Shown here in pieces: positions 19,328 to 47,822 of a stretch of DNA of 64,000 nt. Where the stretch lies: positions 118,614 through 182,613 of the forward strand of contig JBEKBX010000002.1 in the NCBI GenBank assembly GCA_050015175.1. The letters run 5' to 3'. Source of the stretch: Acidimicrobiales bacterium (GTDB lineage Bacteria; Actinomycetota; Acidimicrobiia; Acidimicrobiales; Bog-793). The notes under the pieces are model-generated. The model had not been told where the DNA came from and ran no database searches. It saw only the letters and a program-made list of their open reading frames with translations. A program made the translations under genes and the position numbers. The number at the start of each line of letters is the position of its first letter. The first letter of the stretch is position 1.

Positions 19328-21049
19328 TCAGCCGACGGATGCGTTCCAGAGGAAGAACTGGCTGAGGGCCGTCGGGTAGACGCCCGTCACGTTCTTCCGG
19401 GTCGCAGCCAGGTAGTTGTAGAAGTAGGGGTAGATGATCGGCGTCTCGTCGAGCAGCAGGAGCTCTATCTGCTTGGCGACGCTCCTCTGGCTGGGAAGGT
19501 TGGTCGCAGCAACGTACTCCTGGGCCAGTTTGTCGTAGGCGGGGTCGTTGAAGCGGGCGGCGTTCCAGGCGCCGGCGCCTGTCGCTTTGTTGAAGGTCAT
19601 CAACGGTGCGTTGAGGAACAGGTTCGGCGTCGACCGGTTGCCGTAGTCCACCATGCTCATCTCGCCGTCGAGCCAGTCCGAGGTTCCGTACACGGCGGAG
19701 CCGTAGTACTTGTCCGGCTGCTCGATCGTGAGGCTGATGTCGACCCCGATCTCCTTGGCCCAGGTCTTGATGAACTGTGCCAGTTCCGGCATCTCCTGGC
19801 GCTGCTCGGTGATGAGCGGCGTGCTGAAGCCCCTGGCGTAGCCGGCCTTAGCGAGCAGCTGCTTGGCCATCGCGATGTTCTGGGCGCGCTGGGGAACCGC
19901 CGGCGGGCCGACCGTTGCCGGGAAGCAAGGGGCAAACGGGCTGTCGTTGCCGATGTCGGCGTAACCCTTGAACAGCGAGCTCACGAGCTGGGGACGGTTG
20001 AGCGTGAGAGCGATCGCCTGGCGGACCAGGTTGCTCTTGAACGGACCGGTGTCGCAACGCATCGAGAGCTCGCGGTGCCCCGAGCCCTTCAGCTTGATGA
20101 TGTTGTACGCGCCGGTCAACAGCTGTGGGCTCGTCGAGACGAAGAACTGGTCCAGACAGTCGATCTCGTTGGCCACGAGAGCGTTCGCCATCGGTTCCTC
20201 GGCGGCGTAGAAGGTCCACTGCACTTCGCTCGAAATCGCCGGTTTCCCCCAGTAGTACGGGTTGCGGACGAAGGTCGCTCCCACGTTCGTGGTGTAGCTC
20301 TGCATCATGTAATGCCCCGTACCGACCCACTGCGATGGGTAGTTGGAGTAGTCGAAGCCGTTCGGGACCACGATCATGTTGTAGTTGTCGGACGAGACTG
20401 CATCGAGGAAGGCTCCGTCGGCGGTCTCGAGGTGGAAGGCGATCGTGCCGTCGTCCACCTTCACCACGCCATCGGGAACCAAAAGCCCGCCGAACACCGA
20501 GAGAGCGCTTCCGCCGCTCTTCGGGTTGCACTGGGTCTTGAAGCTGTAGACGACGTCGTCGACGGTCATGTCGTTGCCGTTGTTGTACTTGACGCCCTGG
20601 CGGATCTTGAAGGTCCAGACGTCTGCCTTGGCGTTGGGGGTCCAGCTCGTGGCAAGCCATGGCAAGTAACCGAGCGCCTGGTCCGCTTCCACGAGGAACT
20701 CACCGACGTTGCCGAGGAGCTCGAGGCCGCCCTCGTCGGCGATCGTGAGCGGGTTGATGGCGCCGGCCGGCGTGATGATGCCCGCCCTTATCGTGCCGCC
20801 CGACGCAGCCCGCGCGCGGGAGACCGCAGACGCCCGTGGCCGCACACCCGGCAGGCCCTTGGCCTCGAGAATGCCACCGAGGAGCGGCAGCGAGAGGCCG
20901 AATGCCGTGCCTTTCTTGAGGAAGTCCCTCCGGGACAGCCTCCCGGCGACGAACTCGTCGATGATGTGCTCTTGGATCGGGCCCCGACCACGTCGGAGGT
21001 TGTCGAGCCGTTCGTGATTGACTTCTCTACCGTTGTCGTTGACGTCCAT
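19328..21049 (-). CDS. ABC transporter substrate-binding protein, family 5 (peptide/nickel/opine type), Tat signal
   Basis: 573 aa with the twin-arginine signal SRRDFLKKGTAFGLSLPLLGG. The body length and composition are DppA/OppA-like. Confidence 0.85.
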   Translation of the reverse strand: MDVNDNGREVNHERLDNLRRGRGPIQEHIIDEFVAGRLSRRDFLKKGTAFGLSLPLLGGILEAKGLPGVRPRASAVSRARAASGGTIRAGIITPAGAINPLTIADEGGLELLGNVGEFLVEADQALGYLPWLATSWTPNAKADVWTFKIRQGVKYNNGNDMTVDDVVYSFKTQCNPKSGGSALSVFGGLLVPDGVVKVDDGTIAFHLETADGAFLDAVSSDNYNMIVVPNGFDYSNYPSQWVGTGHYMMQSYTTNVGATFVRNPYYWGKPAISSEVQWTFYAAEEPMANALVANEIDCLDQFFVSTSPQLLTGAYNIIKLKGSGHRELSMRCDTGPFKSNLVRQAIALTLNRPQLVSSLFKGYADIGNDSPFAPCFPATVGPPAVPQRAQNIAMAKQLLAKAGYARGFSTPLITEQRQEMPELAQFIKTWAKEIGVDISLTIEQPDKYYGSAVYGTSDWLDGEMSMVDYGNRSTPNLFLNAPLMTFNKATGAGAWNAARFNDPAYDKLAQEYVAATNLPSQRSVAKQIELLLLDETPIIYPYFYNYLAATRKNVTGVYPTALSQFFLWNASVG

Positions 21050-26267: not shown

Positions 26268-27695
26268 GTGAAGCGCTACCTGATCGGCATAGACAACGGG
26301 TCCCAGAGCACGAAGGTGTCTGTGTTCGACGAGCGTGGCACCGTGGTGTGCGAGGGGCGCCAGGCCCTCCGGCCAAATGACACGCCGCAGCCCGGCGTGG
26401 TGGAACACCCGGACGACGATCTCTGGTTCTCCATTGGCGAGGCGAGCCGCCAGGCCATGGCGGCGTTCCCGGGGGATGTCGCGGACATAGTCGGCGTGGG
26501 CCTGTGCACGATCCGTTTCTGCAGGGCGCTCCTCAAGGCCGACGGGACATTGGCCACTCCGGTGATGAGCTGGATGGACCGAAGAGTTTCCCGGCCCTAT
26601 GAGCACATCGACCCGAACGTGCGCTATGTGACGACGTCGTCGGGGTACATCAGCCACAGGATGACCGGTGAGTTCAAGGACACTGCCGCCAACTACGCGG
26701 GTGTGTGGCCGTTCAACGCGGACCGCTGGGAGTGGTTGCGCGACGACGAGGGCTTCTCGGACTACCAGGTGCCGCGCCAGATGCTCTTCGAGTTGCTGAT
26801 GCCGGGTGAGGTGCTGGGCTGCGTGACGCCCGAGGCGTCTCGTCACACCGGGATCCCGGCGGGGCTGCCAGTTGTCGCGACTTCCAACGACAAGGCCGTC
26901 GAGGCCCTCGGGTGCGGCCTGCGCTCGCCCGACACTCTCCTCGTCTCGTTGGGCACGTACACCGCGAGCATGACGACAGGAGAGCGCAACATACCGGACG
27001 CCAAGAGCTTCTGGTCCAATTTCGCCTCCATTCCGCATCAGTACCTGTACGAGAGCTACGGCATCCGCAGGGGCATGTGGACGGTCAGTTGGTGGCGGGA
27101 CCTGCTCGGCGAGGAGGCGAGGTCGGCAGCGGAGCGACAGGGACTGGGGGTCGAGCAGTATCTCGACCTCGAGGCAGAGAAGGTGCCACCCGGCTCGAAC
27201 GGCCTCATGGTGGTCCTCGACTGGCTCGCGCCGACGGAAGCCCCGTTCAAGAAAGGCTCGATCGTCGGCTTCGACGTCCGGCACGACCGGTTCCACATCT
27301 ACAGGGCCATACTCGAGGGAATCGCCCTGACGATCTACCGGTGTGGCACGGCGATGGGGGAAGAGACGGGGGAGATCTACAACCGGATAGTCGTCTCGGG
27401 CGGGGGATCGAACTCGGACGTGTTCATGCACATCTTCGCCGACGTCTTCGGGGTCCCGGCTGTTCGCAGCAAGATGAACAACGCCGCGGGGCTGGGCTCA
27501 GCGATCTGCGCCGCTGTCGGGCAGGGCGTTTACGGCTCGTGGGACGAAGCCATCGACAACATGGTGTCCTGGGAGCCGCCCTTCGCCCCGAACGCCAAGA
27601 ATCATGACCTGTACTTGCGGATGGCGGCTGTCTACGACGAGGTCCCGAGCCTCACGGACAAGATCTTCGAACGGTCCTACGAGATCTTCGGCTGA
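26268..27695 (+). CDS. FGGY-family carbohydrate kinase
   Basis: N-terminal YLIGIDNGSQSTKVSVFD plus FGGY N and C domains. GTG 26268 behind GGAGGCAGGA is preferred over TTG 26256. The 3-prime end overlaps the convergent ABC ATPase gene by 19 nt. Confidence 0.85.
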   Translation: MKRYLIGIDNGSQSTKVSVFDERGTVVCEGRQALRPNDTPQPGVVEHPDDDLWFSIGEASRQAMAAFPGDVADIVGVGLCTIRFCRALLKADGTLATPVMSWMDRRVSRPYEHIDPNVRYVTTSSGYISHRMTGEFKDTAANYAGVWPFNADRWEWLRDDEGFSDYQVPRQMLFELLMPGEVLGCVTPEASRHTGIPAGLPVVATSNDKAVEALGCGLRSPDTLLVSLGTYTASMTTGERNIPDAKSFWSNFASIPHQYLYESYGIRRGMWTVSWWRDLLGEEARSAAERQGLGVEQYLDLEAEKVPPGSNGLMVVLDWLAPTEAPFKKGSIVGFDVRHDRFHIYRAILEGIALTIYRCGTAMGEETGEIYNRIVVSGGGSNSDVFMHIFADVFGVPAVRSKMNNAAGLGSAICAAVGQGVYGSWDEAIDNMVSWEPPFAPNAKNHDLYLRMAAVYDEVPSLTDKIFERSYEIFG

Positions 27696-29761
27696 CCGGC
27701 TGTCTGGTCGGCGACCTCCGTTTGCGAGCTTCTCAGTTCGCCGATGGGGATGTGGCAACGCATCATGTGACCCGGCTCGACCTCGACGAGCGCGGGCTCG
27801 GTGGACTCGCACAACCCGTTCGCGAGGCGTCGCGGACAGCGCGTGTGGAACACGCACCCCGACGGCGAGTGCGCGGCGCTCGGGATCTCGCCCGTGAGCC
27901 GGATCCGCTCGCGGGACGTCCCGTCCAGGCTCGGCACCGCCGAGAGCAACGACTCGGTGTAAGGGTGATGGGGACCAGAGAAGACCGTCTCCGCCGACCC
28001 GTACTCCATCACGCGGCCCAGATAGAGCACCGCGATGCTGTCAGAGAGGTAGCGCACGACACCAAGATCGTGCGAGATGAAGACATAGGTGACTCGCTCA
28101 CGGCTTTGCAGGTCGGCGAGGAGATTGAGGATTGCCGCTTGCACAGAGACGTCGAGCGCCGAGGTCGGCTCGTCGCACACGAGGACCCGCGGAGACCCCG
28201 CGAAAGCGCGGGCGATGGCGACCCGTTGCTTGAGCCCCCCGGAGAGCTGGTAGGGGCGCAAGGGCAGGTGGCGCTCCTCCATGCGCACGGAGCGGACGAT
28301 CTCGAGAAGTCGTTGCTCGCACGCTTGGCCGGAGAGCCCGGCCAGCTTCTTGAGCGCCCTCGTGACGATGTGGCGCACGCTGTGGCGTCGGTTCAGCGCG
28401 GAGTCCGGGTTCTGGAAGATGATCTGCATCGCCTGCAACTGCTTGCGGTCGCGCTTGGTGCACTCGGGAGCGAGCGGCGAGCCTTCCAACTGGATGACGG
28501 ATCCCTCGTCGGGCACGCTCAGGCCGAGCAGCACGCGCGCGAGCGTCGTCTTGCCGGACCCCGACTCGCCGACGAGCCCGAGGGTCTCGCCTGGCTTGAG
28601 GTCGAGGTCGACACCCACGACGGCACGCACGTGCTCGCCGCGGACGTGGAACGTCTTCGACACGCCGCGCAAGCGGATCACCGGCTCTTCGCCCGGGTCG
28701 GGGATCTGCAGCTTGACGTCCTCCGGGGTTGCCCTGGGCAGCTCGGGCGCTCGTTCGTGGTAGTGACAGCGAGAGGTGCGTCCTGCGGCCACGTCGTACA
28801 TCGGCGGCGTCTCCTCGAGGCAACGCTGGTCCGCGATCGCACAACGCTTGGCGAAGATGCAGCCGACCTGGATCTCGCCCGGCCCGGGAAGGAAGCCCGG
28901 GATGGTGTCGAGGCGGCCGTGGTCCTTGCGCTGGCCGCGACGAGGCACGCAGCGCAGCAGCCCTACGGTGTAGGGGTGCCTGGGGTCGTCGAAGACCTCC
29001 CGTGCAGGACCCTGTTCTACGATCTCACCGGCGTACATGACCCCGACCCGGTCGCACATCTTCGCGATCACCGCGAGGTTGTGGCTGATGAAGAGCACTG
29101 AGGTCTGGAACTGTTGGCGCAGCGACGACACGAGGTCGAGGACCTCGGCCTCCACCGTGGCGTCGAGCGCGGTCGTGGGCTCGTCGAGTATGAGCAGCGA
29201 GGGCTCGGAGGCGAGCGCCATGGCGATCATGACTCGTTGCAGCATCCCGCCCGACAGCTGATGCGGGTAGGAGCGCAACACGCGCCCAGGATCCGCGATC
29301 TGCACGACGCGCAGCAGCTCCTCGGCGCGCGCCAAGGCTTCGGGCCTCCTTGTTCCGGCGATCTCGTACACCTCGGCCACCTGACGTCCCACCCGGAGCG
29401 ACGGGTTGAGGGCACGGCCGGGCTCTTGGTACACCATCGAGATCGTGCGAGCGCGGAACTTGCGCAGGGCGCGTTTGTCCATCTCGGAGGGGTCCTGCCC
29501 GTTGACCACGACCGTGCCCCCGCTGAGTCGACCGTTGCGCGGCAGGTAACGAGTGATGGCGAGGGCGGTGGTGGACTTGCCGCAGCCCGACTCGCCGACG
29601 AGCCCGAACGACTCCTGCCGTCCGATGCTGAACGAGACGTCGCGGAGAGCCAGTCGATCCTTGCCCCGCACTCGGTAGGCCACGTCGAGGTGGCTCACCT
29701 CGAGGGTCATGGGTGGTCTCTCCACCGTGGCGGCCTGGTCGGACGACGTTGTAAGGGTCAT
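27677..29761 (-). CDS. ABC transporter ATP-binding protein, fused double NBD (DppD-DppF type)
   Basis: Two Walker A sites ([18 protein letters not shown]) and two signatures ([16 protein letters not shown]). The ATG at 29761 overlaps the permease stop (ATGA); the ATG at 29710 is an alternative start. Confidence 0.9.
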
Positions 29762-30690
29762 TGGATCAGCACCGTCTCGATCGCGTCGCCGATGAGGTTT
29801 ATCGCGATGATGAGCGAAGCGATCGCGAGCGCCGGGAAGAGCGTCTCCCACCAGTAGCCGGCGGCGAGGTAATTGGAGTTGACGGCGATGTCGGCGCCCC
29901 AGTCCGGCGTGGGCAGCTGCACGCCGAAGCCGAGGAACGACAGCGTTGCGATCGTGAAGATGGCGTAGCCCAACCGGACGGTGAACTCAACGAGTATCGG
30001 GCCGAGCACGTTCGGGAGGATCTCGACGTACATGACGTGCAGGACGCTCTCGTCGCGTAACCGGGCCGCCGCGAGGTAGTCGAGCTCACGCTCCTGCAGG
30101 ACTGCGGTACGCACCGTCCTCGCGATGATCAGGGAGAAGACGAAGCCGATGACGACGATCAGAGTGAGCGTGCTGGGGCCGACTGCGACGACGAAGAGAA
30201 AGGCCACGATGACGATCGGAAGCGAAAGCGCCGCGTCCACGATCCTGCCGACGATCATGTCGAAGGCACCACGGAGGTAGCCCTGTGCAAGGCCGATCGT
30301 CGTTCCGACAACCGTGCCCAAGAGCGTGGCGAGAGGGGCGATCTCGAGGATGTCGCGGGCGCCGACGATCACACGGGACAACACGTCCTCGCCGACGTCG
30401 TTCGTCCCGAACCAGTGGGCGGCCGACGGCGCGAGCTGGGTGCTCAGAATGTTCGCCCCCGTCGCGTTGTAGGGAGCGAACGAGGGCCCGAAGATGGCGC
30501 AGACGATCCACCAGAGGAGGATGAGCGCGCCGATGATGAACGTCTTTGAGCGGACGAGCTGGTGAAGCTGCTCGCGGCGGACCTGCACGACGGACACATC
30601 GAGTGCGCCTGCGGCGCCGGCGGACGCGTCGGCCAGGGTTGCAGCCCCTCCGGCCACGGTAGGCGCGAGTGGGTCGATGGCCGCCGTCAT
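29758..30690 (-). CDS. ABC transporter permease (DppC-like)
   Basis: Track ORF trimmed to the ATG at 30690 (310 aa). It is polytopic with a BPD_transp_1-type layout. ATGA overlaps at both ends. Confidence 0.9.
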   Translation of the reverse strand: MTAAIDPLAPTVAGGAATLADASAGAAGALDVSVVQVRREQLHQLVRSKTFIIGALILLWWIVCAIFGPSFAPYNATGANILSTQLAPSAAHWFGTNDVGEDVLSRVIVGARDILEIAPLATLLGTVVGTTIGLAQGYLRGAFDMIVGRIVDAALSLPIVIVAFLFVVAVGPSTLTLIVVIGFVFSLIIARTVRTAVLQERELDYLAAARLRDESVLHVMYVEILPNVLGPILVEFTVRLGYAIFTIATLSFLGFGVQLPTPDWGADIAVNSNYLAAGYWWETLFPALAIASLIIAINLIGDAIETVLIQ

Positions 30691-31640
30691 TCCGCGTTCC
30701 CCAGCCTGATCCGCGGGTTCAACACCGTGTAGAGGATGTCGGCGATGAGCGTCGCGGCGAGGTAGACGATGCCGATGAAGAGAACTCCCGCTTCGAGAGT
30801 CGGGAAGTCCTTGTCGTTGGCGGCGTTGATGATCAAGGTGCCGATACCCGGGTAGACGAAGAGCTTCTCGACCACGACGAGCCCGCCGATGAGGTAACCG
30901 GTCTGTGTAGCGATGACCGTGATGGTTGGAAGCAACGAGTTGCGAAGCACGTGCCGCCGGATCACCACCCATCGGGGCAGCCCCTTCAAGGTGGCTGTGC
31001 GGACGTAATCGGAGTCGAGCGCCTCGATCGTGCCGGCCCGGGCCATTCGGGCTATGTAGCCGAAGAGGATGAACACGAGCGGGATGGCAGGCAGGATCAG
31101 GTACTTCAGCTGGACGAAGAACGACGAGCCGGGTGGAGCGTTGGCCGAGACCGGCAACAGCTTGAAGCCGAGGGCGAACACGACGATCAGAACGACGCCG
31201 GAGACGAACTCGGGCACCGTCGAGAGAGAGAGGCTCGTCGTGCTGATCAGACGGTCCACGAAGCTCCCTCGGTTGAGCGCCGCGATGATCCCGCCGAGGA
31301 TGCTGAGGGGTACGACTATGACGAAGGCGAAGGCCGCGAGCTTGAGGGAGCGACCGATGTACGGGAAGATGAAGGAGCTGACCGGTGCCTGTTGCTGGTA
31401 GGAGGTCCCGAGGTTGCCGTGCAGGATACCGGTGGCCCAGCTCCAGTACTGAACGAGGAGCGGCCGGTCGACTCCGAGCTTGTGGTCGAGCGTGATCACA
31501 GCCTGTTGCGAGGCGAAGGGTCCGAGGATGGCTCTGCCTGCGTTACCGGGGAGCACCTGACCGGCGAAGAAGATGATCATGCTCAAGAGCACGAGCGTGA
31601 TCAACGCCAAGCCGACACGCTTCAACACGTACAGCGGCAA
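30687..31640 (-). CDS. ABC transporter permease (DppB-like)
   Basis: 317 aa with a TTG start behind GGGAGGAGGG. The N-terminus MPLYVLKRVGLALITLVLLSMIIF is typical of DppB/OppB. Confidence 0.9.
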   Translation of the reverse strand: MPLYVLKRVGLALITLVLLSMIIFFAGQVLPGNAGRAILGPFASQQAVITLDHKLGVDRPLLVQYWSWATGILHGNLGTSYQQQAPVSSFIFPYIGRSLKLAAFAFVIVVPLSILGGIIAALNRGSFVDRLISTTSLSLSTVPEFVSGVVLIVVFALGFKLLPVSANAPPGSSFFVQLKYLILPAIPLVFILFGYIARMARAGTIEALDSDYVRTATLKGLPRWVVIRRHVLRNSLLPTITVIATQTGYLIGGLVVVEKLFVYPGIGTLIINAANDKDFPTLEAGVLFIGIVYLAATLIADILYTVLNPRIRLGNAE

Positions 31641-31702
31641 CTGTGCCCTCCTCCCGTATCACATCCCGGCCTGGGCCAACACGGTCAAGTCGAGACTGGA
31701 GG

Positions 31703-31717
31703 TTAACCGGAGGTTAA
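31703..31717. promoter_or_regulatory. TTAAC-N5-GTTAA palindrome (T-N11-A type) embedded in the direct repeat GGAGGTTAA-CC-GGAGGTTAA
   Basis: Perfect 5-bp inverted arms in an otherwise GC-rich divergent intergenic region (31641-31980). A third GGTTAAC lies at 31860-31866. Confidence 0.3.
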
Positions 31718-31980
31718 TCAGAGCCAGAAGCTAGCAGGGCAACCGTCTATTCGCCTTTCGCGTAGGGTTCAGCGCTTGTTGCCCGGTTTCGGGCGGCACG
31801 GATCGAAGGACAGGCCTGCGAATCCGAGGAGCCGAGTCTTGGGCGGCGAAGGCCTCGACGGTTAACATGGCGAGCCATGCGCGCGGCCCGACGTCGACAC
31901 GATGCCCGCGCTCACGCCAACCCCGGCGGCAGCTCAAGCACGCGTCGCCGAGAACGGCGGTCACCTCGGTTGGCCACGAG

Positions 31981-33354
31981 ATGCCCGCAGTAGACCTCTC
32001 CATCCTCGGGCGGGTCGTCAACGGCGTCAGCGCGCCGGTTCGCGGCGAGATCCGCGTTGCCGGGGGTCGCATCGTCGAGGTGCGCGAAGGCGAGCCTGCT
32101 TCCCTGTCGGCCACAAGGCTGATCGACGTCGGAACTGCCTATCTGCTCCCCGGCGGGATCGACTGCCACGTCCATTCGGGCAGCACCACGGCCGAGGGGA
32201 TCCGGGCTCTCACCGCGGCGGCGGCGGCCGGCGGCGTGACCACCGTGATCGACATGCCCTACGACGTGGCAGCACCGGTCGTGAGCCCGGAGATATTGGC
32301 CGCCAAACGCGCCAAGGTCCTGGCTGAAGCGCTTGTCGACGTGGCCCTCTTGGGCACGGTGCGCCCCGGGACCGGTGGCGTCGACGTCGGTCCGCTCGTC
32401 GAGGCCGGCGCGGTGGGCTTCAAACTCTCGCTGTTCGGCACTGACCCCCACCGGTTCCCGCGCATTCCAGACGACCAGTTCCTCGAAGTCCTCGCCGCGA
32501 TCCACGAGCACGGCAGCGTCGCGTGCGTGCACGCCGAGAACGAGGAGATAATCAAGCCCCTTCTGGCACGTGCCCGTGAATCGGGCGATGCCTCCCCGAT
32601 TGACCACTGCCGCTCGCGCCCGCCGGTGAGCGAGACCCAGGCGGTGCTGACGGCGCTCGAGTACGCCAGGGAGACAAAGGCTCCTCTCCACTTGTGCCAC
32701 CTGAGCCTCGCCCGCTCGGTGGACCTCGCCCGTTCGTATGCCGCAGAGGGCCTGCGGGTGAGCACGGAGACGTGCCCGCACTACCTGTGCTTCTCCGAGG
32801 ACGACATGGAGCGCCAACGTGGTCGCCTGAAGATAAACCCGCCCTTGCGCCCGGCCACCGAGGTGGCCCGGCTCTGGGAGCGTCTGTCGGGAGGGGGGAT
32901 CGACGTGGTTGCCTCGGACCATGCGCCCTGGCCACTGTCGGAAAAGACGCGACCGGCGATCTTCGACAATCACTCCGGGGCCCCGGGCACCGAGACACTT
33001 GTCACGGTGCTGGCTGCCGGGCTCCTCGACCGGGGCCAGGACCTCAACACGCTCCCGCACCTCGTTGCAGCGGCGCCCGCGCGTATCTTCGGGATCTCGC
33101 ACGTGAAAGGCTCTCTCATGCCCGGCATGGACGCCGACATCATGGCCTTCGACCCGGGCAGGCCATTCACCCTCGATGAGCGCCAACTGCACTCGAACGC
33201 GGGCTGGAGCCCTTATCACGGGATGGCTTTTCCCGGGCGGGTCATCCTAACGGTCTCGCGTGGAGAGGTGGTCTGGGACGGGTCGCAGCTCCACGGATCG
33301 CCGGGTCGCGGCCGTGTCGTGGAGCGTCCCCGGGGGGCACCACAAGGTGGCTGA
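31981..33354 (+). CDS. Cyclic amidohydrolase (hydantoinase/allantoinase/dihydroorotase family); candidate hydantoin-5-propionate hydrolase
   Basis: Trimmed to the ATG at 31981 (457 aa). It has LLPGGIDCHVH, GFKLSLFG, VHAENEE and VASDHAPW. Confidence 0.85.
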   Translation: MPAVDLSILGRVVNGVSAPVRGEIRVAGGRIVEVREGEPASLSATRLIDVGTAYLLPGGIDCHVHSGSTTAEGIRALTAAAAAGGVTTVIDMPYDVAAPVVSPEILAAKRAKVLAEALVDVALLGTVRPGTGGVDVGPLVEAGAVGFKLSLFGTDPHRFPRIPDDQFLEVLAAIHEHGSVACVHAENEEIIKPLLARARESGDASPIDHCRSRPPVSETQAVLTALEYARETKAPLHLCHLSLARSVDLARSYAAEGLRVSTETCPHYLCFSEDDMERQRGRLKINPPLRPATEVARLWERLSGGGIDVVASDHAPWPLSEKTRPAIFDNHSGAPGTETLVTVLAAGLLDRGQDLNTLPHLVAAAPARIFGISHVKGSLMPGMDADIMAFDPGRPFTLDERQLHSNAGWSPYHGMAFPGRVILTVSRGEVVWDGSQLHGSPGRGRVVERPRGAPQGG

Positions 33355-35005
33355 TCCGGACAGGCCCGCCGAGGTCACAGCTCAGCGCGGCCCTCTGCTC
33401 CGCTGCCGGGGGTGGCGCCAGGAGGGGCTTCTCCGGATGCTCGAGAACGTGCTGGAGATCGGCGAGCGTCCCGAAGACCTGGTCGTCTACGCGGCGCGTG
33501 GCAAGGCAGCCCGGGACTGGGAGTCGTACTCGAGGATCGTTCTGTCGCTCAAACGCCTCGGCGAGGACGAGACGCTCGTGGTGCAGTCCGGAAAGCCAGT
33601 CGCCGTCTTCCCCAGTTCGCCTGACGCCCCTCTCGTCGTGATGGCCTGCGGCAACGTGGTCGGCCACTACGCGACCGCGGAGTACTTCGACGAGTTGTGC
33701 GACCGCGGCCTCATCATGTGGGGCGGCCTGACTGCCGGAGACTGGCAGTACATCGGTTTCCAGGGCGTTCTCCAGGGCGTCTACGAACTCCTGCAGGCAG
33801 TTGCGAGGGACCATTTCGGCGGTTCGCTCGCCGGGAGGTTCGTCCTCACGGCCGGCCTCGGTGGCATGGGATCGGCGCAACCTCTCGCCATCTCGTTGGC
33901 GGGGGGCACTGGCATCGTGGTCGAGGTCGACCCGGACAAGTGCGCCCGCGCCCAGGCCCGCGGTCACCTCGCGTCGGTGACCGACGATGTGGAAGAGGCG
34001 CTCGCGTTTGCCGGCGACAGGGATGCGGGCAGGGTCATCGGACTCGTCGGCAACGCGGCGTCCGTCTACGAGGAGCTTTGCGACAGCGGCGTCGTGCCCG
34101 ACGTCGTCACCGACCTCACGGCCGCGCACGACGCGGTCTTCGGTTACTGCCCGGTCGACTACTCGCTCGAGGAGTGGAAAGCCGTTCGCGAGCTGGACCC
34201 GGCAGCCGTCGCAGACAGGGCGCGTCGTTCCATGGCCCTCCAGGTCCGGGCGATGCTGAAACTGAAGGCGCGCGGTGCCGTCGTTTTCGAGGACGGCAAC
34301 AACCTGCGCGTGCAGGCCGCCGCCGCCGGAGTCAGTGAAGCCTTCGAGATCGACGGGTTCGCGGAGAGGTACCTGAGGCCGCTGTTCTGCCGGGGAATCG
34401 GGCCGTTCCGCTGGTTGGCCCTGAGCGGTGAGCCCTCCGACCTCGCCGAGCTCGACAGCCTCGTGTGCGAGATGTCCTTCCGTCCCGAGGTGGAGTCCTG
34501 GATCTCACTCGCCCGGGAACACGTGGCGATGCAGGGACTGCCGGCACGGAGCTGCTGGCTCGGCCACGGGGAGCGTTCCAGGTTCGCCGTGGCCGTGAAC
34601 GGGCTTGTCCGGGACGGGCGGCTCGGCGGGCCGGTCGCCTTCACCCGGGACCACTTCGACTCGGGCGGGATGACCCATCCGCACATCGGGACCGAGGCGA
34701 TGGCGGACGGGTCGGATGCCATCTCCGACTGGCCGATACTCGACGCCCTCTTGTTAGCGGCCTCGGGCGCCGATCTCGTCGCAGTACACGCCGGAGGTGC
34801 AGGTTACGCGGGCTACATACAGTCGGCTGGCGTCACGATCGTCGCCGACGGCAGCGCGGGGGCGGGCGAGCGCCTCCGTCGCGGGCTCGACGCCGACAGC
34901 GGGCTCGGCGTTTTGCGCTATGCGGACGCCGGGTACGCCGATGCAGTGTCTGTGGCCGGCAGCGCCGGCCTCGGGCTCGGCCTTGAGCGGGAGGAGAAGA
35001 GATGA
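33347..35005 (+). CDS. Divergent urocanase-family hydratase; candidate thiourocanate hydratase
   Basis: GTG 33347 overlaps the upstream stop (GTGGCTGA). It is collinear with HutU (VQSGKPVAVF, GLGGMGSAQP, PLFCRGIGPFRW, GLPARSCWLG). It is altered at several blocks that are conserved in the canonical copy at 49264. Confidence 0.85.
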   Translation: MADPDRPAEVTAQRGPLLRCRGWRQEGLLRMLENVLEIGERPEDLVVYAARGKAARDWESYSRIVLSLKRLGEDETLVVQSGKPVAVFPSSPDAPLVVMACGNVVGHYATAEYFDELCDRGLIMWGGLTAGDWQYIGFQGVLQGVYELLQAVARDHFGGSLAGRFVLTAGLGGMGSAQPLAISLAGGTGIVVEVDPDKCARAQARGHLASVTDDVEEALAFAGDRDAGRVIGLVGNAASVYEELCDSGVVPDVVTDLTAAHDAVFGYCPVDYSLEEWKAVRELDPAAVADRARRSMALQVRAMLKLKARGAVVFEDGNNLRVQAAAAGVSEAFEIDGFAERYLRPLFCRGIGPFRWLALSGEPSDLAELDSLVCEMSFRPEVESWISLAREHVAMQGLPARSCWLGHGERSRFAVAVNGLVRDGRLGGPVAFTRDHFDSGGMTHPHIGTEAMADGSDAISDWPILDALLLAASGADLVAVHAGGAGYAGYIQSAGVTIVADGSAGAGERLRRGLDADSGLGVLRYADAGYADAVSVAGSAGLGLGLEREEKR

Positions 35006-36087
35006 CACGAGAGCTGACCGGAGACGACGCCCTCAACGCCGTGTGGGGCGGGTCGCTGCTGGCTTGCGGCGGAGGAGGATGGGTCGACCACGGCATGATG
35101 ATGGGCGAGCTCGCCACGCGGGTCGGCCGCCCTGTCCTCTGCTCGCCCGATGAGATAGCCGACTCTGATCTCGTCGTCACGGTCACCGCCATTGGCGCGC
35201 CGGCGTCGCCGAGCAGAGAGATCCGCCCGCTCGACTACGTGCGGGCGCTGCAGCTGGTGGCAGGTGAGACGGACCGCCCGGTCGTGGCAGTGATGACGGC
35301 CCAGAACGGCTCGTCGACAACGCTGAACGGCTGGATCCAGTCCGCCGTCCTCGGCGTGCGGGTGCTTGACGCCGCGGGAGACGTACGGGCGCATCCGACC
35401 GGCAAGCTCGGCGCGATGGGCCTTACCACCCGAGCCGGCTACGAGACCGTGCAGGCAGTCGCCGGCGGGAACCGTGAACTGAGCGGCGGCCTCGAGGTGG
35501 TCGTTCGTGGCCAGGTGATTGCGACCTCCGACGTCTTGCGCGATGTGTGCGTGCGCGCCGGCGGCTTCATCGCCGCGGCCCGTCATCCCGTGGAGGCGTC
35601 CTACGTGAAGCAACATGCCGCCCTCGGCGCCATCAGCTACGCCTTGTCGCTCGGGTCGGCCATGCGTGCCGCGCCTGACGCCGCGGCCGTCATCGACGCG
35701 GCGATCGCCGCGACCGGCGGAAGGGTCGTCGCAAGCGGTCCCGTCCGCGAGGTCGACCCGCTCCGGACCGCGGGCGGCTTCGACCACGGTTCGTTGTCGA
35801 TCGGCGGGTACGTCGTGCGATACCTGAACGAGTACATGACCGTGGACCTCGAGGGCTTGCGCGTCGCCACCTACCCCGACGTCATCGCCACCTTGTCGCT
35901 CGAGGACGGGCGGCCGATCTCAATTGCCGAGATGACCGAGGGCCGCGAGGCGGCGCTGTTCGTCGTTGACCAGTCCCTGTTGCCGCTCTCCTCCAGCACA
36001 CGCGACCGGTTCGCGCTCGAGGAGGTCGAGAAGATCATGGGTATCTCGCTGATCGGGCACGGGGTGCCCGCGACTCGGCCGTCGTGA
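35002..36087 (+). CDS. DUF917-family protein; candidate thiohydantoin desulfurase
   Basis: 361 aa with ATGA overlap to the upstream gene. N-terminal LNAVWGGSLLACGGGGW plus a two-domain DUF917-like layout. The family call is from memory. Confidence 0.75.
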   Translation: MTRELTGDDALNAVWGGSLLACGGGGWVDHGMMMGELATRVGRPVLCSPDEIADSDLVVTVTAIGAPASPSREIRPLDYVRALQLVAGETDRPVVAVMTAQNGSSTTLNGWIQSAVLGVRVLDAAGDVRAHPTGKLGAMGLTTRAGYETVQAVAGGNRELSGGLEVVVRGQVIATSDVLRDVCVRAGGFIAAARHPVEASYVKQHAALGAISYALSLGSAMRAAPDAAAVIDAAIAATGGRVVASGPVREVDPLRTAGGFDHGSLSIGGYVVRYLNEYMTVDLEGLRVATYPDVIATLSLEDGRPISIAEMTEGREAALFVVDQSLLPLSSSTRDRFALEEVEKIMGISLIGHGVPATRPS

Positions 36088-37355
36088 GCCGACTGCCGTC
36101 GCCTCACCTCGGGCGAGTCTCGGACGACTTCGAGACCCTCGCATCATACCGGGACCCGGAGGCCCCGGGCTGGACGCGTCGTGTCTTCTCCGGCTTCGAC
36201 AGTGCCGGGAGAGCCTGGGTCGCCGGGAGGATGGAGGAGGCGGGCCTGACAGTCGAGACCGACGCGGCGGCCAACCTCATCGGGAGATTGCCCGGCACCG
36301 CTTCGTTGCCCGGCGCGATCGTGACCGGTTCGCACACCGACACCGTGCACGGAGGGGGCCGTTTCGACGGCATCGTCGGGGTGCTCGGCGCCCTCGAGGC
36401 GGTCCGCTGCCTGCGCGAGGCACGGACCGAGCTCGAGCACGACCTCATCGTGGTCGACTTTCTCGGTGAGGAGCCGAACGACTTCGGCTTGAGCTGCGTG
36501 GGAAGCCGCGCGATATCCGGCGCGCTCGACGAGGGTCACCTCGCTCTTGTGGGCCCGGAGGGGCTCAGTCTCGCCGAGGCGCTCGCGGCCTGCGGCGGGC
36601 GACCGTCCGCGCTCGAAGGCGCGCGCTGGCCGAACGGCCTGCACTGCTACGTCGAGCTGCACATAGAGCAGGGCCCGGTGCTCGAAGCCGCACGGGGCCC
36701 GATAGGAGTGGTGACAGGCATCGTCGGCATCCACCGGCTCCTTGCGAGCATCGTCGGGCAGCCGGATCATGCCGGCACAACCCCGATGAGCCTCCGCCGG
36801 GATGCGCTCCTGGGAGCGGCAGAGGCTGCGCTCGCCATAGAGAGGCTCGCCGAGGGAGGTGTGGCGACGACGGGCCGTCTCGAGATCCGGCCCGGCGCCC
36901 ACAACGTGGTACCCGGAGAGGCCGACCTGTGGGCCGAGGCGCGAAGTGCCGACGAGGAATGGCTGGACGACTTCGGGCGCAGGGTCACCGAAGAGATCAG
37001 TGCCATCGGCGCCCGGCGGCACCTCGGCACGACCCTCAGCTGGATCTCGCGCGAGCGTCCAGTGACGGTCACGGACTGGGTGGCGGCCGCCATCGGGGAG
37101 GCGGCACGGTCTTTCGGGATCGAGCCCCTCAACATTCCGAGCGGCGCCGGTCACGACGCGTCCCACATGGCGCGTCTTGGTCCGATGGGCATGGTTTTCG
37201 TGCCGTCCCGGGCCGGGCGGAGCCACTGCCCGGAGGAGTGGACGGACCTGGAGGATATCGGTCGTGGCATCGCCGTCCTAGCGGAGACGTTGGTAATTTG
37301 TGATCACCGAGAGGAGGCGCGCCAGGGGAGGCGGCGCCGCGGGTCAGATGACTGA
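36084..37355 (+). CDS. M20-family N-carbamoyl-L-amino-acid / allantoate amidohydrolase
   Basis: 423 aa with GTGA overlap to the upstream gene. It has TGSHTDTVHGGGRFDGIVGV, ELHIEQGPVLE, PDHAGTTPM and SGAGHDA. Confidence 0.85.
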   Translation: MSRLPSPHLGRVSDDFETLASYRDPEAPGWTRRVFSGFDSAGRAWVAGRMEEAGLTVETDAAANLIGRLPGTASLPGAIVTGSHTDTVHGGGRFDGIVGVLGALEAVRCLREARTELEHDLIVVDFLGEEPNDFGLSCVGSRAISGALDEGHLALVGPEGLSLAEALAACGGRPSALEGARWPNGLHCYVELHIEQGPVLEAARGPIGVVTGIVGIHRLLASIVGQPDHAGTTPMSLRRDALLGAAEAALAIERLAEGGVATTGRLEIRPGAHNVVPGEADLWAEARSADEEWLDDFGRRVTEEISAIGARRHLGTTLSWISRERPVTVTDWVAAAIGEAARSFGIEPLNIPSGAGHDASHMARLGPMGMVFVPSRAGRSHCPEEWTDLEDIGRGIAVLAETLVICDHREEARQGRRRRGSDD

Positions 37356-38931
37356 GCGACTTGTCGAGCTGACCGGAGACGACCTGAGCGTGCAGGATGT
37401 CGTCGCGGTTGCACGCGGTCGGACCCGGGTCGCTCTTTCCGCCGAAGCGCTCCGGCGGATGCGCCAGGCTCGCGATGTCGTCGACGCGATACTCGCGAGC
37501 GGCGAGCCGGTGTACGGCCTCAATACCGGGCTCGGCTCGTTCGCCCGTTTCCGGATTCCGATCGAGCAGATCAAGCGCTTCTCGTTTGACACCGTGGCCG
37601 ACCTGAGCTCGTCCTACGGCCGGCCGCTGCCCGCTGACGTCGTGCGGGCGATGATGGTGGCCCGGGCGAACGGCATGGCCAAAGCCGGCGTCGGCGTGAG
37701 GTGTGAGCTGGCGCAACTGCTCGTCGAGCTCTTGAACCGGGACGTCGATCCGGTGGTGAGGGAGATCGGCTCGGTCGGCCAGGGCGACCTGTCGGAGATG
37801 TCCGACATCGGCAAGGTGCTGATCGGCATCGGGCACGCCGAGGTCGGCGGCGAGGTGATGAGCGGGCGGGCGGCATTGGCACGAGTCGGGCTGGAGCCGA
37901 TCGAGCTCGCCCCGAAGGAGGCGCTCGCGCTGATCAGCGCCAACGGAGTCACCCTCGGACGGGGCGCCCTCGTGCTGCACGACGTCGCGGACCTCGTCGA
38001 CCTGCTGCAGGCGGCGGCCGCATTGTCGCTCGAGGGCTTCGCAGGCAATCTCTCGATCATCCATCCCGGCACGAGCGAGCTCCAGCCTCAGGTCGGGCCC
38101 AGTACGGCCGCCGACCGGCTGCGCCACATGCTCGAGGGCTCCTACCTGTGGGAACCGGGCGCGGCGCGCAACCTGCAAGATCCGCTTTCGTTCCGCTGCG
38201 TGCCCCGCAGCCACGGTGCGCTCTACGACGCTCTCCACTACTCGCGCTTCAACCTCGAGAGCGAGTTGAACGCGGCCAATGACAATCCGCTCGTGCTCGT
38301 CGGCGAGGGAGTGATCGTCTCGGGCGGCAGCTTCGACGTGGTGGGGCTCGCCATGGCCTTCGACCTGTTGCGCCTCGCCATAGCGAACGCCGTCAAGGGC
38401 ACCAACGAGCGCGTGCAGAAGCTGCTGTGGAACCACTTCAGCGGCCTGCCGAGCGCGCTTGCCTTCGACCAGGGACCCACCAACGGCCTCAAGCCGATGG
38501 GCCGCTGGTGTGCGGCGCTCGCAGCCGAGGCGCGCTCGCTCGCCGGACCCGTGACACTCGACTACGCAGGGCAGGTAGCCGAGGGTGTCGAGGACGACGC
38601 CAGCATGGCCCCGCTCTCGGTGCGCCGGACCCACGAGCTCGTCTCGCTCGTCCACCGCACTGTGGTCTACGAGCTCATAGTGGCCGCCCAGGCGGTCGAC
38701 ATGCGGGAGCGGTGGCCAATTGGGCGCGGGACCACCGTCGTGTACCGGGCCGTGCGCGACCACGTGCCGATGCTGCGCGACGTCCGTGGTTGGGACCCGG
38801 ACATCGAGGGTCTCGTCGAAGCCGTCGCCCAGGGCGAGCTCGGCGCCCGGATAGCCGCCGCGATCGGCGGACGTAAGCAGGAGCCGCGAGTACTGATGGG
38901 GGTGCGCACACCGGACGCGCCCGAGCACTAG
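37348..38931 (+). CDS. HAL/PAL-family ammonia-lyase homologue lacking the MIO-forming Ala-Ser-Gly; candidate ergothionase-type betaine lyase
   Basis: ATG 37348 overlaps the upstream stop (ATGACTGA). It has YGLNTGLGSFA, NDNPLV and QDPLSFRC. The MIO position reads GSVGQGDLSEM instead of GSVGASGDLAPL. Confidence 0.85.
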   Translation: MTERLVELTGDDLSVQDVVAVARGRTRVALSAEALRRMRQARDVVDAILASGEPVYGLNTGLGSFARFRIPIEQIKRFSFDTVADLSSSYGRPLPADVVRAMMVARANGMAKAGVGVRCELAQLLVELLNRDVDPVVREIGSVGQGDLSEMSDIGKVLIGIGHAEVGGEVMSGRAALARVGLEPIELAPKEALALISANGVTLGRGALVLHDVADLVDLLQAAAALSLEGFAGNLSIIHPGTSELQPQVGPSTAADRLRHMLEGSYLWEPGAARNLQDPLSFRCVPRSHGALYDALHYSRFNLESELNAANDNPLVLVGEGVIVSGGSFDVVGLAMAFDLLRLAIANAVKGTNERVQKLLWNHFSGLPSALAFDQGPTNGLKPMGRWCAALAAEARSLAGPVTLDYAGQVAEGVEDDASMAPLSVRRTHELVSLVHRTVVYELIVAAQAVDMRERWPIGRGTTVVYRAVRDHVPMLRDVRGWDPDIEGLVEAVAQGELGARIAAAIGGRKQEPRVLMGVRTPDAPEH

Positions 38932-39004
38932 GGCGCGAGAGAAGGAGGCTCCGGGGCCCCCTTACTCGGGGTCCGCTAGCACCGGGTCGTGGCCGCTCCG
39001 GGCT

Positions 39005-40279
39005 TCAGGTATGCCCGATCTGGACGCCCGGCTCCGGCACCCGGACGTGAAAGGCGAGCCAGCCGATCGCCAGCCCGGTGCCCAGTACGACTTGAGCAAT
39101 GGCGAAGGTCGCGCGCGCACCGAGCGGACCGACGACGGCACCGGCGAGAAGCGGGCTGACGACCGTCGAAAAGGCCCACACGAGGTTGAGCATGCCCATC
39201 ACGACACCGAGTCCCACTCCGGCTCGGTTGGCCCCGGAGGCACCGAGTGGGTACCCGACAGACCACAGGACGGACCGGGCCGCAGCCGTCGCACAGAGCA
39301 TCACGACGACGAAAAGTGGCGCCGCGCTCGCGGTCGCGGGCGACATCACGAGTGCGAGAACGACGCCTGCGCCGAGGATGGTCCGCAGACGCACAGCGCG
39401 CAGACCAGCTCTCTTGGTAACCGCGCTGCCGAGGATGAACACCGCCGCGGCGGCCGAGAACACGATTCCGATCGAGCCCTCGGAGGCGCCGGACTCGTGC
39501 AGCTCGAGTGGCCCGAGCAACGTCACGAGAGCCGCCGAAGCACCGGCAATGCTCACAGCCATCGTCGCTCCCAGGATCCTGAGATCGGATGCAGCCGTGC
39601 GGATGCTGGAGACGACGCCCGTGTGCTCCAACGGGCAGGTGCCTTCAAGGTCGATCGAGGTCAACATCACCGTCACCACGACCATCAGGACGGTGGCGAC
39701 GACGAAAGGTGCCGCGAGACCGAAGTACTGGGCGACGAACCCGGCGAAGGCCGGTCCCGCGATGGAACCGAACCCCGATGCCGTGACGGTTCCGGCGAGT
39801 GACGAATCGTCGCCCGAGGCCCTCGCCAGCCACGTGAGCGCCGCCGTCCACACGATGCCGTAGCCGAGGCCGAAAACGAGGCGGGAAGCGAGCAGCAATG
39901 CGTACGAGGGGGCGAAGGCCTGGCCGAGGGTTGCGAGCACGATGAGCCAACCGGACCACAAGGTCAGCACGCGTGCTCCGAAGTGATCGGAGAGGGCACC
40001 GGCCGGCAGCGAGATGACGAGTGCCGCGACGCCGGTCGCGGCGAGCAACCCTGCCGTTTCCACGCCACCCAGCTGGAAGCGGTGAGCGTAGGAGGGCAAC
40101 AGCGGCGCGATCGCGGACTGGAGCAGCGAGCTGAGTAGGGCGAGGGCGTAGACGAGGCGACGCAGACGGCGAATCCTCGGATCGATCACCCCTGTCTCGT
40201 CAAGTACCGGCGGCCCGGCCGGGTGGCGGTGCCTCCTGGTCATCTGTCGTTGTCCCGCAATGTTCAGGGCCGCCACCAC
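39005..40279 (-). CDS. MFS transporter
   Basis: 424 aa with about 12 predicted TM segments and the MFS loop motif GALSDHFGAR. The start may be the ATG at 40243. Confidence 0.85.
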   Translation of the reverse strand: MVAALNIAGQRQMTRRHRHPAGPPVLDETGVIDPRIRRLRRLVYALALLSSLLQSAIAPLLPSYAHRFQLGGVETAGLLAATGVAALVISLPAGALSDHFGARVLTLWSGWLIVLATLGQAFAPSYALLLASRLVFGLGYGIVWTAALTWLARASGDDSSLAGTVTASGFGSIAGPAFAGFVAQYFGLAAPFVVATVLMVVVTVMLTSIDLEGTCPLEHTGVVSSIRTAASDLRILGATMAVSIAGASAALVTLLGPLELHESGASEGSIGIVFSAAAAVFILGSAVTKRAGLRAVRLRTILGAGVVLALVMSPATASAAPLFVVVMLCATAAARSVLWSVGYPLGASGANRAGVGLGVVMGMLNLVWAFSTVVSPLLAGAVVGPLGARATFAIAQVVLGTGLAIGWLAFHVRVPEPGVQIGHT

Positions 40280-40356
40280 TTACCTATCGGAAGCTGGACA
40301 CTTCATCCTTATATTCATTTTACGACAAGATTGTTCGCAGATAACCTGAATCATTA

Positions 40357-43087: not shown

Positions 43088-43445
43088 TCGTCTACTTCCT
43101 AAGAGGACCTCGGACCGAGAACGGCGGCGTGGCGACTCTCCAAATCACCCCGCGTCAGTGAAGCACAGCATCATTCTGCCCTGTCGGGCAAGACGTGCTC
43201 GCAATGGTCCGGCTCGTTGCCGGCTCCAGCGGGTGCGGGGCTTCTTGCCCGGCCGGGAGGCGGGCTATGGGCGTTCAGATCCGTGACGCTAGAGTGAAAC
43301 CGACGTCGCGCTACACGACCCCGAGGAGCCTGTTGGTACCTGCTCAAGAGTGATCGAGCGTGCGGGCCATATCGCTTCGACGCCTTCTGGGCGCGGGCCG
43401 CTGGTTCAACACCGAAGTCGATGGTTACCGAAAAGGAGATCTGAC

Positions 43446-45741: not shown

Positions 45742-46015
45742 CCGTCTCCTCGACGTCGTCCGTCCAGATGATCTGCCCGACACGGCGACGACCCAACGCC
45801 GCCTCTTTCTCTCGTGCCAAGATGGGATTGTGACCAGGAGAACCACCGCATGAGCCCTGACAACGGGCTCATCCGCGGAGTTGCGCGGCGCCACACAGCG
45901 CTCCGGGCTGCCCGGCGACGGGGTCATCGACGAAGGACCGCGGTTCCTCGCAGTCGACGAGGACGCCCGCCTTGTTTCGCCGCTGTCGGGGTAGCGGCGC
46001 GTTCTGGAGGTCCGA

Positions 46016-47464: not shown

Positions 47465-47822
47465 CTCGAGCGATGCGACGGAAGAGACAGTTTCGAGAAG
47501 CCTGGGTTGGGCGAGCCGGTTCGTAGGTACAGGCCGTTCCCTTGGAGCCAAACAGCGGCAAAGGTATTCAGTGCTTCGTCACGCCCTGAGTGCCTGCGTT
47601 TGCTTGTGGTCGCGGCCACGATCTGATACAACGAACTCAGCACGCGTGAATTCGTTGGAATCAGTCATATAGCGGCGAAGGTTCCTCGTTCCCAGTAGAG
47701 GTGAGGTGCAGGGGACGCGCCGGACCTTTGACTCCTCACCGGGTGTGGGCACGCGGGCGAAAAGTTGCTTGTCACCGTCTTGCCTATCCGCGTCCAGCGT
47801 CGACGACAGGAGGCGGTGTGTA

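Follow-up and report, generated by a model that had tools for sequence, protein, structure and literature searches.

The window examined here, that is, the whole stretch of 64,000 nucleotides that was analysed (G+C content 66.7%), comes from a metagenome-assembled genome (MAG) of an Acidimicrobiales bacterium. At positions 31981-38931, it carries five open reading frames (ORFs) on the plus strand, each of which overlaps the next by start/stop codons (Table 1). Encoded together are a lyase of the histidine ammonia-lyase (HAL) type devoid of the 4-methylidene-imidazole-5-one (MIO) triad, a urocanase paralogue, a DUF917 protein, a cyclic amidohydrolase and an M20 carbamoylase, the gene order being D-B-C-E-A by reference to the enzymes of ergothioneine catabolism. 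The ORFs and their four overlaps lie exactly at the coordinates, and with the strings, given in a first-pass annotation of this DNA, and Pfam returned exactly the five protein families named there. The start/stop overlaps indicate that the five genes form one operon; short overlaps of this kind are common between operonic genes of high-GC actinobacteria and are unremarkable in themselves. Public records label the genes only as allantoinase, urocanate hydratase, DUF917 and histidine ammonia-lyase. On the basis of the sequence comparisons described below, we consider it likely that they represent the actinobacterial version of the known five-enzyme pathway leading from ergothioneine to glutamate, trimethylamine and H2S.

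Table 1. Features of the predicted ergothioneine-catabolic locus and its surroundings (positions are those of the window).
Feature	Position	Strand	Description
ORF1	31981..33354	+	457 aa; Pfam Amidohydro_1; ErtD-like cyclic amidohydrolase, predicted step 4
ORF2	33347..35005	+	552 aa; Urocanase N, Rossmann and C domains; predicted thiourocanate hydratase, step 2
ORF3	35002..36087	+	361 aa; S-Me-THD_N/C, formerly DUF917 (PF06032 + PF20906); predicted thiohydantoin desulfurase, step 3
ORF4	36084..37355	+	423 aa; Peptidase_M20; predicted N-carbamoyl-L-glutamate amidohydrolase ErtE, step 5
ORF5	37348..38931	+	527 aa; Lyase_aromatic PF00221; MIO-less HAL-fold lyase, predicted ergothionase, step 1
ORF1-ORF2 junction	33347-33354	+	GTGGCTGA, exact
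ORF2-ORF3 junction	35002-35005	+	ATGA, exact
ORF3-ORF4 junction	36084-36087	+	GTGA, exact
ORF4-ORF5 junction	37348-37355	+	ATGACTGA, exact
Opp/Dpp-type ATP-binding cassette (ABC) transporter, divergent from the operon	27677..31640	-	Pfam and gene calls
ABC permease	30687-31640	-	
ABC permease	29758-30690	-	
ABC fused double ATPase	27677-29710	-	
Family-5 solute-binding protein (SBP)	19328..21049	-	PF00496; four plus-strand genes between the SBP and the ABC transporter
Major facilitator superfamily (MFS) transporter	39005-40279	-	Pfam
LysR regulator	40357-41286	+	Pfam
Divergent intergenic region	31641..31980		Two conserved non-coding blocks, 31695-31740 and 31857-31908; alignment of 10 loci

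Independent gene calls on three metagenome contigs encoding identical proteins give the same starts for ORFs 1, 3, 4 and 5, and place the start of ORF2 at 33437, 90 nt later than 33347. The later start would remove residues 9-30 of ORF2, which are conserved and align to residues 3-24 of PDB 7NED. Moreover, the RTGNNTGA overlap at the start of ORF2 is kept in 10 related loci, with either ATG or GTG as start codon. Because of the conserved N-terminus and the retained overlap, the start at 33347 was accepted. For ORF1, the ATG at 31981 is invariant in the alignment of 10 loci and the indels upstream of it are not multiples of three, so that they break the frame; this start was therefore favoured over the in-frame ATG at 31867.

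Four of the five steps of ergothioneine catabolism have a curated model in NCBIfam, and these four models (ErtD, thiourocanate hydratase, thiohydantoin desulfurase and ErtE) are the best NCBIfam matches of ORFs 1-4, respectively. ORF1 scored 421 bits with the ErtD model NF058538 (cut-off 600) and 413 bits with the ErtD model NF058539 (cut-off 650), compared to 321 bits with allantoinase. ORF2 reached 748 bits with NF058530 (thiouroc_hyd, cut-off 930), 701 bits with the S-methyl variant and 651 bits with hutU, the latter value being above the hutU cut-off of 375. For ORF3, 385 bits were obtained with NF058529 over residues 3-352 of 361 (cut-off 440) and 265 bits with the S-methyl variant, in keeping with the membership of the DUF917/thiohydantoin desulfurase family proposed in the first-pass annotation. 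When ORF3 was compared to PDB, phmmer gave no match, and the sole hit of a profile search was the remote DUF917 structure 2O3I. ORF4 scored 530 bits with the ErtE model NF058540 and is the sole window protein of the four to pass its cut-off (520). The previous calls of a hydantoinase-type enzyme for ORF1 and of an M20 N-carbamoyl amidohydrolase for ORF4 are thus borne out by their best matches.

As a reference we used the cluster on plasmid CP110394 of Burkholderia sp. JSH-S8 (L082), together with 7NED. L082 passes all four cut-offs (695, 1043, 603 and 645 bits), 7NED passes NF058530 at 1008 bits, and the Agrobacterium cluster L084 passes both S-methyl models (NF058531 and NF058532, cut-offs 880 and 450) with 976 and 555 bits. 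The sub-threshold profile of the window (748/385/421/530 for hydratase/desulfurase/ErtD/ErtE) resembles that of a Streptomyces cluster (721/349/405/531), and a Deinococcus cluster, of which three proteins were scored, gave a similar profile (767/395/563). Since the Deinococcus and Streptomyces clusters score alike, the shortfall is attributed to lineage distance from the seeds and not to a different family; the equivalog models appear to be tuned to Proteobacteria and Firmicutes.

For the lyase, NCBIfam has no ergothionase model, as seen from the Burkholderia reference lyase, which scores like ORF5: both match only HAL-type models, all below cut-off, with ORF5 reaching 359 bits on HutH TIGR01225 versus a cut-off of 539. 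ORF5 matches PF00221 with 429 bits, and its best solved relative is the ergothionase of Treponema denticola, 6S7J (E = 1.4e-69, full length, ~30% identity), a match strong enough to settle the fold. As first read from the sequence, the Ala-Ser-Gly (MIO) triad is missing: ORF5 has GSVGQGDL where HAL has GSVGASGDL, a loop one residue shorter, the same as in 6S7J. Tyr56, Gln277 and Arg283, the equivalents of HAL Tyr53, Gln277 and Arg283, are invariant among nine aligned lyases. Glu415 (HAL Glu414) is found in 8 of the 9, with Asp in Deinococcus, and the neighbouring Asp416 is invariant. The catalytic Tyr and the residues that bind the carboxylate and the imidazole are thereby retained. At the position of HAL Tyr280, ORF5 has Leu, as does the Treponema enzyme, and a signal peptide is absent from ORF5. 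Going by these motifs, ORF5 is a member of the MIO-less group of predicted trimethylamine lyases. Three remoter members of its clade (63-66% identity), which were looked up independently, all adjoin ErtD-hydratase-DUF917 genes. It should be noted that the lyase of Burkholderia L082 (13037-14671) starts with a signal-peptide-like sequence, MQRFITRSAAALALLAALPAFA, while the ergothionases of the pathway are described as cytoplasmic.

ORF2 was found to be a divergent urocanase paralogue, as previously proposed. Its best PDB match is 7NED (648 bits, versus at most 559 bits for canonical urocanases), and it is 54-56% identical to the L082 protein and 7NED. The window contains another urocanase gene, at 49264-50943, with 902 bits for hutU TIGR01228 and 831 bits against urocanase 1X87, and the ranking of the models is reversed relative to that of ORF2. 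ORF2 is 48% identical to this true hutU; the presence of such a paralogue 10 kb downstream of the operon argues that the operon hydratase is a specialised copy. Moreover, 42 positions are fixed differently between five canonical urocanases and the two proteins that pass NF058530 (7NED and Burkholderia). At these positions ORF2 carries the thio-type residue in 28 cases and the canonical one in 5. The thio-type changes of ORF2, in P. putida numbering, include Arg455 to Ile, Gln131 to Gly, Met132 to Leu, Ile138 to Gln and Gly53-Gly54 to Ala-Ala. In a neighbour-joining (NJ) tree, the canonical urocanases form a clade with 99% bootstrap, and ORF2 falls in the non-canonical group (78%).

Canonical histidine-utilisation genes are scattered in the window (49264-50943, 43350-47464, 47706-49259 and 9483-10664). 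The hutI gene at 9483-10664 is over its cut-off with 363 bits, and further genes of the histidine route encode FtcD (glutamate formimidoyltransferase), an FTCD_C cyclodeaminase, a formate-tetrahydrofolate ligase and an NCS1 permease. A canonical hutH was not found, there being no second HAL-family gene within the 64 kb. Because the true hutU, hutI and ftcD lie elsewhere in the window, histidine has a separate pathway.

Related loci were collected by a DUF917 profile scan of one genome per species, which gave 78 loci. Nearly all of them belong to Actinomycetota (Acidimicrobiia, Pseudonocardia, Streptomyces, Amycolatopsis, Rothia, Pseudoclavibacter, Leucobacter, Propionibacteriaceae, Gaiellales and Solirubrobacterales), and the remaining ones to Dormibacterota or Chloroflexi. 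In 75 of the 78, i.e., wherever both are on the fetched contig, the hydratase gene lies next to that of DUF917, the other three being contig-end fragments or poor assemblies; in most loci, ErtD-like and ErtE-like genes flank this pair. This adjacency and flanking indicate that the five-gene arrangement is not a matter of chance. Gene order is kept across 19 Acidimicrobiia-type loci, and the core pair is kept across phyla. The first-pass annotation could match the gene order to no characterised locus. This calls for a correction: D-B-C-E-A is the ordinary actinobacterial arrangement, the Streptomyces cluster shows it with IclR and MFS genes inserted (D-IclR-B-C-E-MFS-lyase), and the Deinococcus cluster also has its hydrolases first and its lyase last. 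Every lyase of these loci that could be aligned over the MIO loop is without MIO, and the lyases form several clades, the residue at the column of T. denticola 384 being Arg, Thr, Gln or His. Cultured strains with related clusters are Streptomyces sp. NBC_01618, Pseudonocardia acaciae DSM 45401 and Pseudoclavibacter helvolus DSM 20419; there, the lyase belongs to another clade than that of the window, or no lyase gene lies within 10 kb. Lyase clade was rejected as a predictor of hydratase and desulfurase similarity, since both proteins group by taxon. The fact that their similarity follows taxonomy and not lyase clade fits a common downstream intermediate.

Some of these loci depart from the general pattern. 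Nine loci (L032, L035, L036, L040, L045, L046, L059, L070 and L076) come from genomes or MAGs of Rothia, Propionibacteriaceae and [Pseudopropionibacterium] massiliense, genera with some host-associated species. Besides the hydratase-DUF917 pair they contain a lyase without MIO (GSMGTGDLQP), which has Thr at the Lys384 column and is ~23% identical to the T. denticola ergothionase; ErtD and ErtE were not detected within 10 kb. Such clusters could represent a shortened pathway in which trimethylamine and H2S are still set free. In eight other loci (L014, L015, L017, L021, L023, L055, L087 and L088), two or three different HAL-family lyase genes surround one hydratase-desulfurase cassette; most of these lyases are MIO-less, e.g., GSVGASDL types with His or Tyr at 384, a hint that two or more betaines are channelled into one downstream route. 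L085, on a plasmid of Microvirga ossetica, combines DUF917 with ErtD-like and ErtE-like proteins, a flavin reductase, an Asp/Glu racemase and an FAD oxidoreductase, lacks both a urocanase and a lyase, and may belong to a different (thio)hydantoin pathway. Lastly, L021 was binned as 'Candidatus Nitrosopolaris' (an archaeon) and L023 as 'Candidatus Sulfotelmatobacter'; both are probably mis-binned, because their gene content and order, their similarity values to the window proteins and their lyase motifs match those of the Dormibacterota/Chloroflexi loci.

A five-step pathway of ergothioneine breakdown has reportedly been worked out for Burkholderia ErtA-E and for Paenibacillus by Muramatsu et al. 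and by Beliaeva, Leisinger and Seebeck in 2021, the reconstitution of the latter being said to emphasise firmicutes and proteobacteria. By analogy, the operon would provide this soil or peat Acidimicrobiales with a cytoplasmic five-step route from ergothioneine (2-thio-histidine trimethylbetaine) to L-glutamate, the substrate being taken up through the divergent Opp/Nik-type ABC transporter. ORF5 would eliminate trimethylamine to form thiourocanate, with Tyr56 as the base and Arg386 holding the thiolate; MIO would be dispensable because trimethylamine is a good leaving group. ORF2, with bound NAD+, would then add water to thiourocanate and yield 3-(5-oxo-2-thioxoimidazolidin-4-yl)propionate, in which the DUF917 protein ORF3 would swap sulfur for oxygen, giving hydantoin-5-propionate and H2S. 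The ErtD-like ORF1 would open the ring of hydantoin-5-propionate to N-carbamoyl-L-glutamate, from which ErtE (ORF4) would release glutamate, CO2 and NH3. A catabolic module for ergothioneine or a related histidine betaine had been proposed in the first-pass annotation, and the curated-model matches, the MIO-less lyase, the paralogous hydratase and the synteny all support it.

The locus is best classed as a divergent orthologous cluster of the Ert pathway in a new lineage, with known chemistry, known enzyme families and curated HMMs, and it differs by two modest variations, namely a lyase in which Arg has replaced Lys and the presence of an ABC transporter in place of the cluster MFS. Burkholderia L082 has the same five enzyme families and predicted chemistry. 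However, its genes are laid out as MFS<-ErtE<-ErtD followed by LysR->DUF917->hydratase->MFS->lyase, whereas those of the window form a single overlapping D-B-C-E-A operon; its lyase is ~32% identical to ORF5, with Lys instead of Arg at 384; it passes the four cut-offs, three of which the window misses; and it has the conserved cluster MFS that the window, from an Acidimicrobiales MAG, lacks, an Opp-type ABC transporter being found there instead. The T. denticola ergothionase 6S7J (Maurer et al. 2019) and ORF5 have both lost MIO via a loop one residue shorter and share the catalytic Tyr, the QDPLSFRC motif with Leu for HAL Tyr280 and the Glu-Asp imidazole ligand; they differ in Lys384 versus Arg386 and fall in separate NJ clades.

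Homologues of the hydratase, the DUF917 protein, the M20 hydrolase and the amidohydrolase are also found in the S-methyl-ergothioneine pathway of Agrobacterium tumefaciens (L084). The window proteins score 701 and 265 bits with the S-methyl models, under the cut-offs of 880 and 450 and lower than with the thio models. Moreover, L084 has genes for a glutathione S-transferase (GST) and a molybdopterin S/N-oxide reductase, both of which the window lacks. On pAt of strain Ach5 (401214-422176), the order is IclR-DUF917-GST-M20-hydratase-molybdopterin S/N-oxide reductase-amidohydrolase, and a betaine ABC transporter comes next; judging by the reductase and GST, the cluster may handle an oxidised, sulfoxide-type substrate. 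In the canonical Hut pathway (HutH-HutU-HutI), HutH and HutU are homologous to ORF5 and ORF2, but the window lyase is without MIO, the hydratase differs at substrate-site positions, and the downstream steps involve a desulfurase, a hydantoinase and a carbamoylase rather than HutI and HutG/FtcD. Finally, the Shewanella betaine lyases (SO_3057, SO_3299 and Swoo_3913) are, like ORF5, MIO-less HAL homologues; they release trimethylamine, and residue 384 tracks their substrate. These lyases are exported enzymes that serve respiration together with flavocytochrome reductases, whereas the window lyase has no signal peptide and belongs to a predicted hydrolytic, assimilatory pathway.

Several points weigh against the assignment to ergothioneine catabolism. 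Three of the four curated equivalog cut-offs (ErtD, thiourocanate hydratase and desulfurase) are missed, and the actinobacterial hydratases split from the S-methyl type at only 45% bootstrap in the NJ tree. Arg386 of ORF5 sits at the column of T. denticola Lys384; other actinobacterial clusters with equivalent downstream enzymes have MIO-less lyases with Thr, Gln or His there, and substrates may differ between lyase clades. Both the known type of ergothioneine importer (EgtUV, ProU/OpuC-like) and the conserved cluster MFS are absent here.

The 384 column deserves a closer look. It holds Lys in the Burkholderia and Treponema enzymes, Tyr in a MIO-containing HAL and, presumably, Val in the HAL of P. 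putida. Two recent preprints describe Lys384 of the Treponema ergothionase as an essential residue that binds the thiolate, and associate Asn at this position in Shewanella lyases with specificity for hercynine and Gln with specificity for N-pi-methyl-hercynine. ORF5 misses this one literal hallmark of characterised ergothionases, yet keeps a positive charge at the site. Among its 120 closest homologues, 119 are without MIO and at least 108 carry the Arg (G-R) motif. In an NJ tree of the lyases, the window clade stands apart from the Lys clade, where the T. denticola enzyme groups with that of Burkholderia. Because the lyases of similar clusters vary at residue 384, it is not a reliable predictor of substrate across the family.

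As the first-pass annotation had cautioned, the substrate might be another one: the same chemistry might act on a different 2-substituted histidine betaine, e.g., selenoneine, S-methyl-ergothioneine, ergothioneine sulfinate or sulfonate, or an unknown analogue. We regard this as unlikely, even if it would accommodate the Arg in place of the Lys that defines characterised ergothionases, the ease with which small changes at 384 switch substrate in the Shewanella lyases, the three missed cut-offs and the unusual transporter type. Arg retains the positive charge needed for a thiolate, and the downstream enzymes are not grouped by lyase clade. Moreover, the S-methyl models score clearly lower (701 vs 748 and 265 vs 385 bits), whereas a genuine S-methyl cluster, L084, reaches 976 and 555 bits. 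To our knowledge, the ergothioneine sulfonate route does without a DUF917 desulfurase. Selenoneine and ergothioneine cannot be told apart by sequence.

A sulfur-independent route, in which the lyase would act on histidine or hercynine as part of a second Hut-like system or of a hydantoin/allantoin-type nitrogen scavenging system, with DUF917 in some other role, appears very improbable. The names in public records (allantoinase, urocanate hydratase and histidine ammonia-lyase) point that way, as do the matches of ORF1 and ORF4 to allantoinase and allantoate amidohydrolase models and the passing of the hutU cut-off by ORF2 (651 vs 375 bits). However, ammonia elimination from histidine is not expected of a lyase without the MIO triad, and ORF5 misses the HAL equivalog cut-off (359 vs 539 bits). 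The window already has a canonical hutU (902 bits), hutI and ftcD, while ORF2 is without the urocanase Arg455 and 27 other canonical-specific residues, and DUF917 is coupled to the hydratase in 75 of the 78 loci, all those with both genes on the contig. As for the five genes being adjacent by chance or not co-expressed, the four start/stop overlaps, the order kept in 19 Acidimicrobiia-type loci and the core pair kept across phyla make this hardly credible, even with no promoter, terminator or operator identified computationally.

Actinobacteria and fungi produce ergothioneine, which plants and animals take up as a micronutrient; little is known of its turnover in the environment. According to a 2026 review (PMC13405746), very few bacteria are definitively known to have ergothionase, and BLAST searches give only generic HAL annotations. 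This locus and the 78 related ones show that clusters for the probable pathway, whether complete or partial, occur commonly among Actinomycetota and Dormibacterota under generic names, and the value for annotation is that the present equivalog cut-offs miss this branch. The locus reveals no new chemistry; it offers a natural Lys-to-Arg lyase variant for probing the proposed role in thiolate binding, and a candidate new transporter. More speculatively, the Arg-bearing MIO-less lyases and their partners may form a large unannotated actinobacterial/Dormibacterota branch of thio-histidine-betaine catabolism, either with a substrate preference unlike that of the Lys-type ergothionases or with uptake of ergothioneine by Opp/Nik-type family-5 ABC transporters, which are not known to carry it; this proposal we hold to be possible but rather doubtful. 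Were it true, soil and peat Acidimicrobiia would consume ergothioneine and give off trimethylamine and H2S on a large scale that has so far gone unrecognised, and the related, differently equipped clusters would make Streptomyces, Rothia and Propionibacteriaceae sinks too.

The ABC transporter divergent from the operon, overlooked in the first-pass annotation, is a better transporter candidate than the MFS protein. Permeases 57-95% identical to those of the window adjoin the cluster in Acidimicrobiia and Dormibacterota/Chloroflexi loci (57-62% for the Dormibacterota ones), and three loci (L021, L086 and L088) have complete SBP_5-permease-permease-ATPase sets next to it. Its recurrence beside the cluster makes the divergent Opp/Nik-type transporter the most likely candidate for uptake of the substrate. 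The SBP at 19328-21049 shares 47% identity with its in-cluster counterpart in L086, ~40% with the counterparts inside the Dormibacterota clusters and 61-66% with SBPs located at most 9 kb from the cluster in L012, L014 and L015; it is possible that it is the cognate binding protein.

The MFS and LysR genes downstream of the operon had been reported as a neighbourhood without a characterised counterpart, which is only partly so: the Burkholderia cluster also has LysR and MFS genes, while the MFS of the window is unrelated to its MFS and the LysR proteins are 25% identical. Two close relatives, L003 and L005, do not have the MFS-LysR pair. That the window MFS is the conserved cluster MFS was rejected, as the two show no significant similarity, compared to 50-52% identity between Burkholderia and Streptomyces. 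The MFS and LysR genes of the window are probably lineage-specific neighbours and not core. The in-cluster MFS proteins of L082 (11697-13019), L033 (12394-13740) and L027 (12356-13741), with 50-52% identity between Burkholderia and Streptomyces/Pseudonocardia, are strong candidates for an ergothioneine permease that is apparently unnamed.

Both conserved blocks of the divergent intergenic region are confined to close Acidimicrobiia relatives and are candidates for an operator or a leader. The core motif of block 1, GAAGCTAGCAG, occurs once, at the same syntenic position and in close relatives only, and the window contains a single copy of the full block-1 pattern. The minus strand of block 1 (CCTGCTAGCTTC...CCTCC) has an anti-Shine-Dalgarno stretch that could pair with the Shine-Dalgarno sequence of the permease, GGGAGGAGGG. 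We do not claim block 1 (31695-31740) as an RNA leader, given an RNAalifold covariation of only -1.23 kcal/mol, the nine close relatives involved and the lineage-restricted motif. Block 2 (31857-31908) holds the palindrome CATGGC-GA-GCCATG. Predicted sigma-70 promoters and intrinsic terminators in 31500-32100 and 38800-40500 were no more numerous than in shuffled controls, inverted-repeat searches of three intergenic regions found none, and Rfam (at the gathering threshold) and ARAGORN returned nothing for the whole window.

Two further observations concern the rest of the window. The mca gene called at 1047 in the first-pass annotation (1047-1916) scores 304 bits with TIGR03446 versus a cut-off of 277; because Mca passes this equivalog cut-off, the host is confirmed as mycothiol-using. 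Downstream of hutU, at 50940-53862, lie genes for the large and small subunits of AcnX and for a nickel-pincer-cofactor-dependent isomerase (NF052515, 460 bits).

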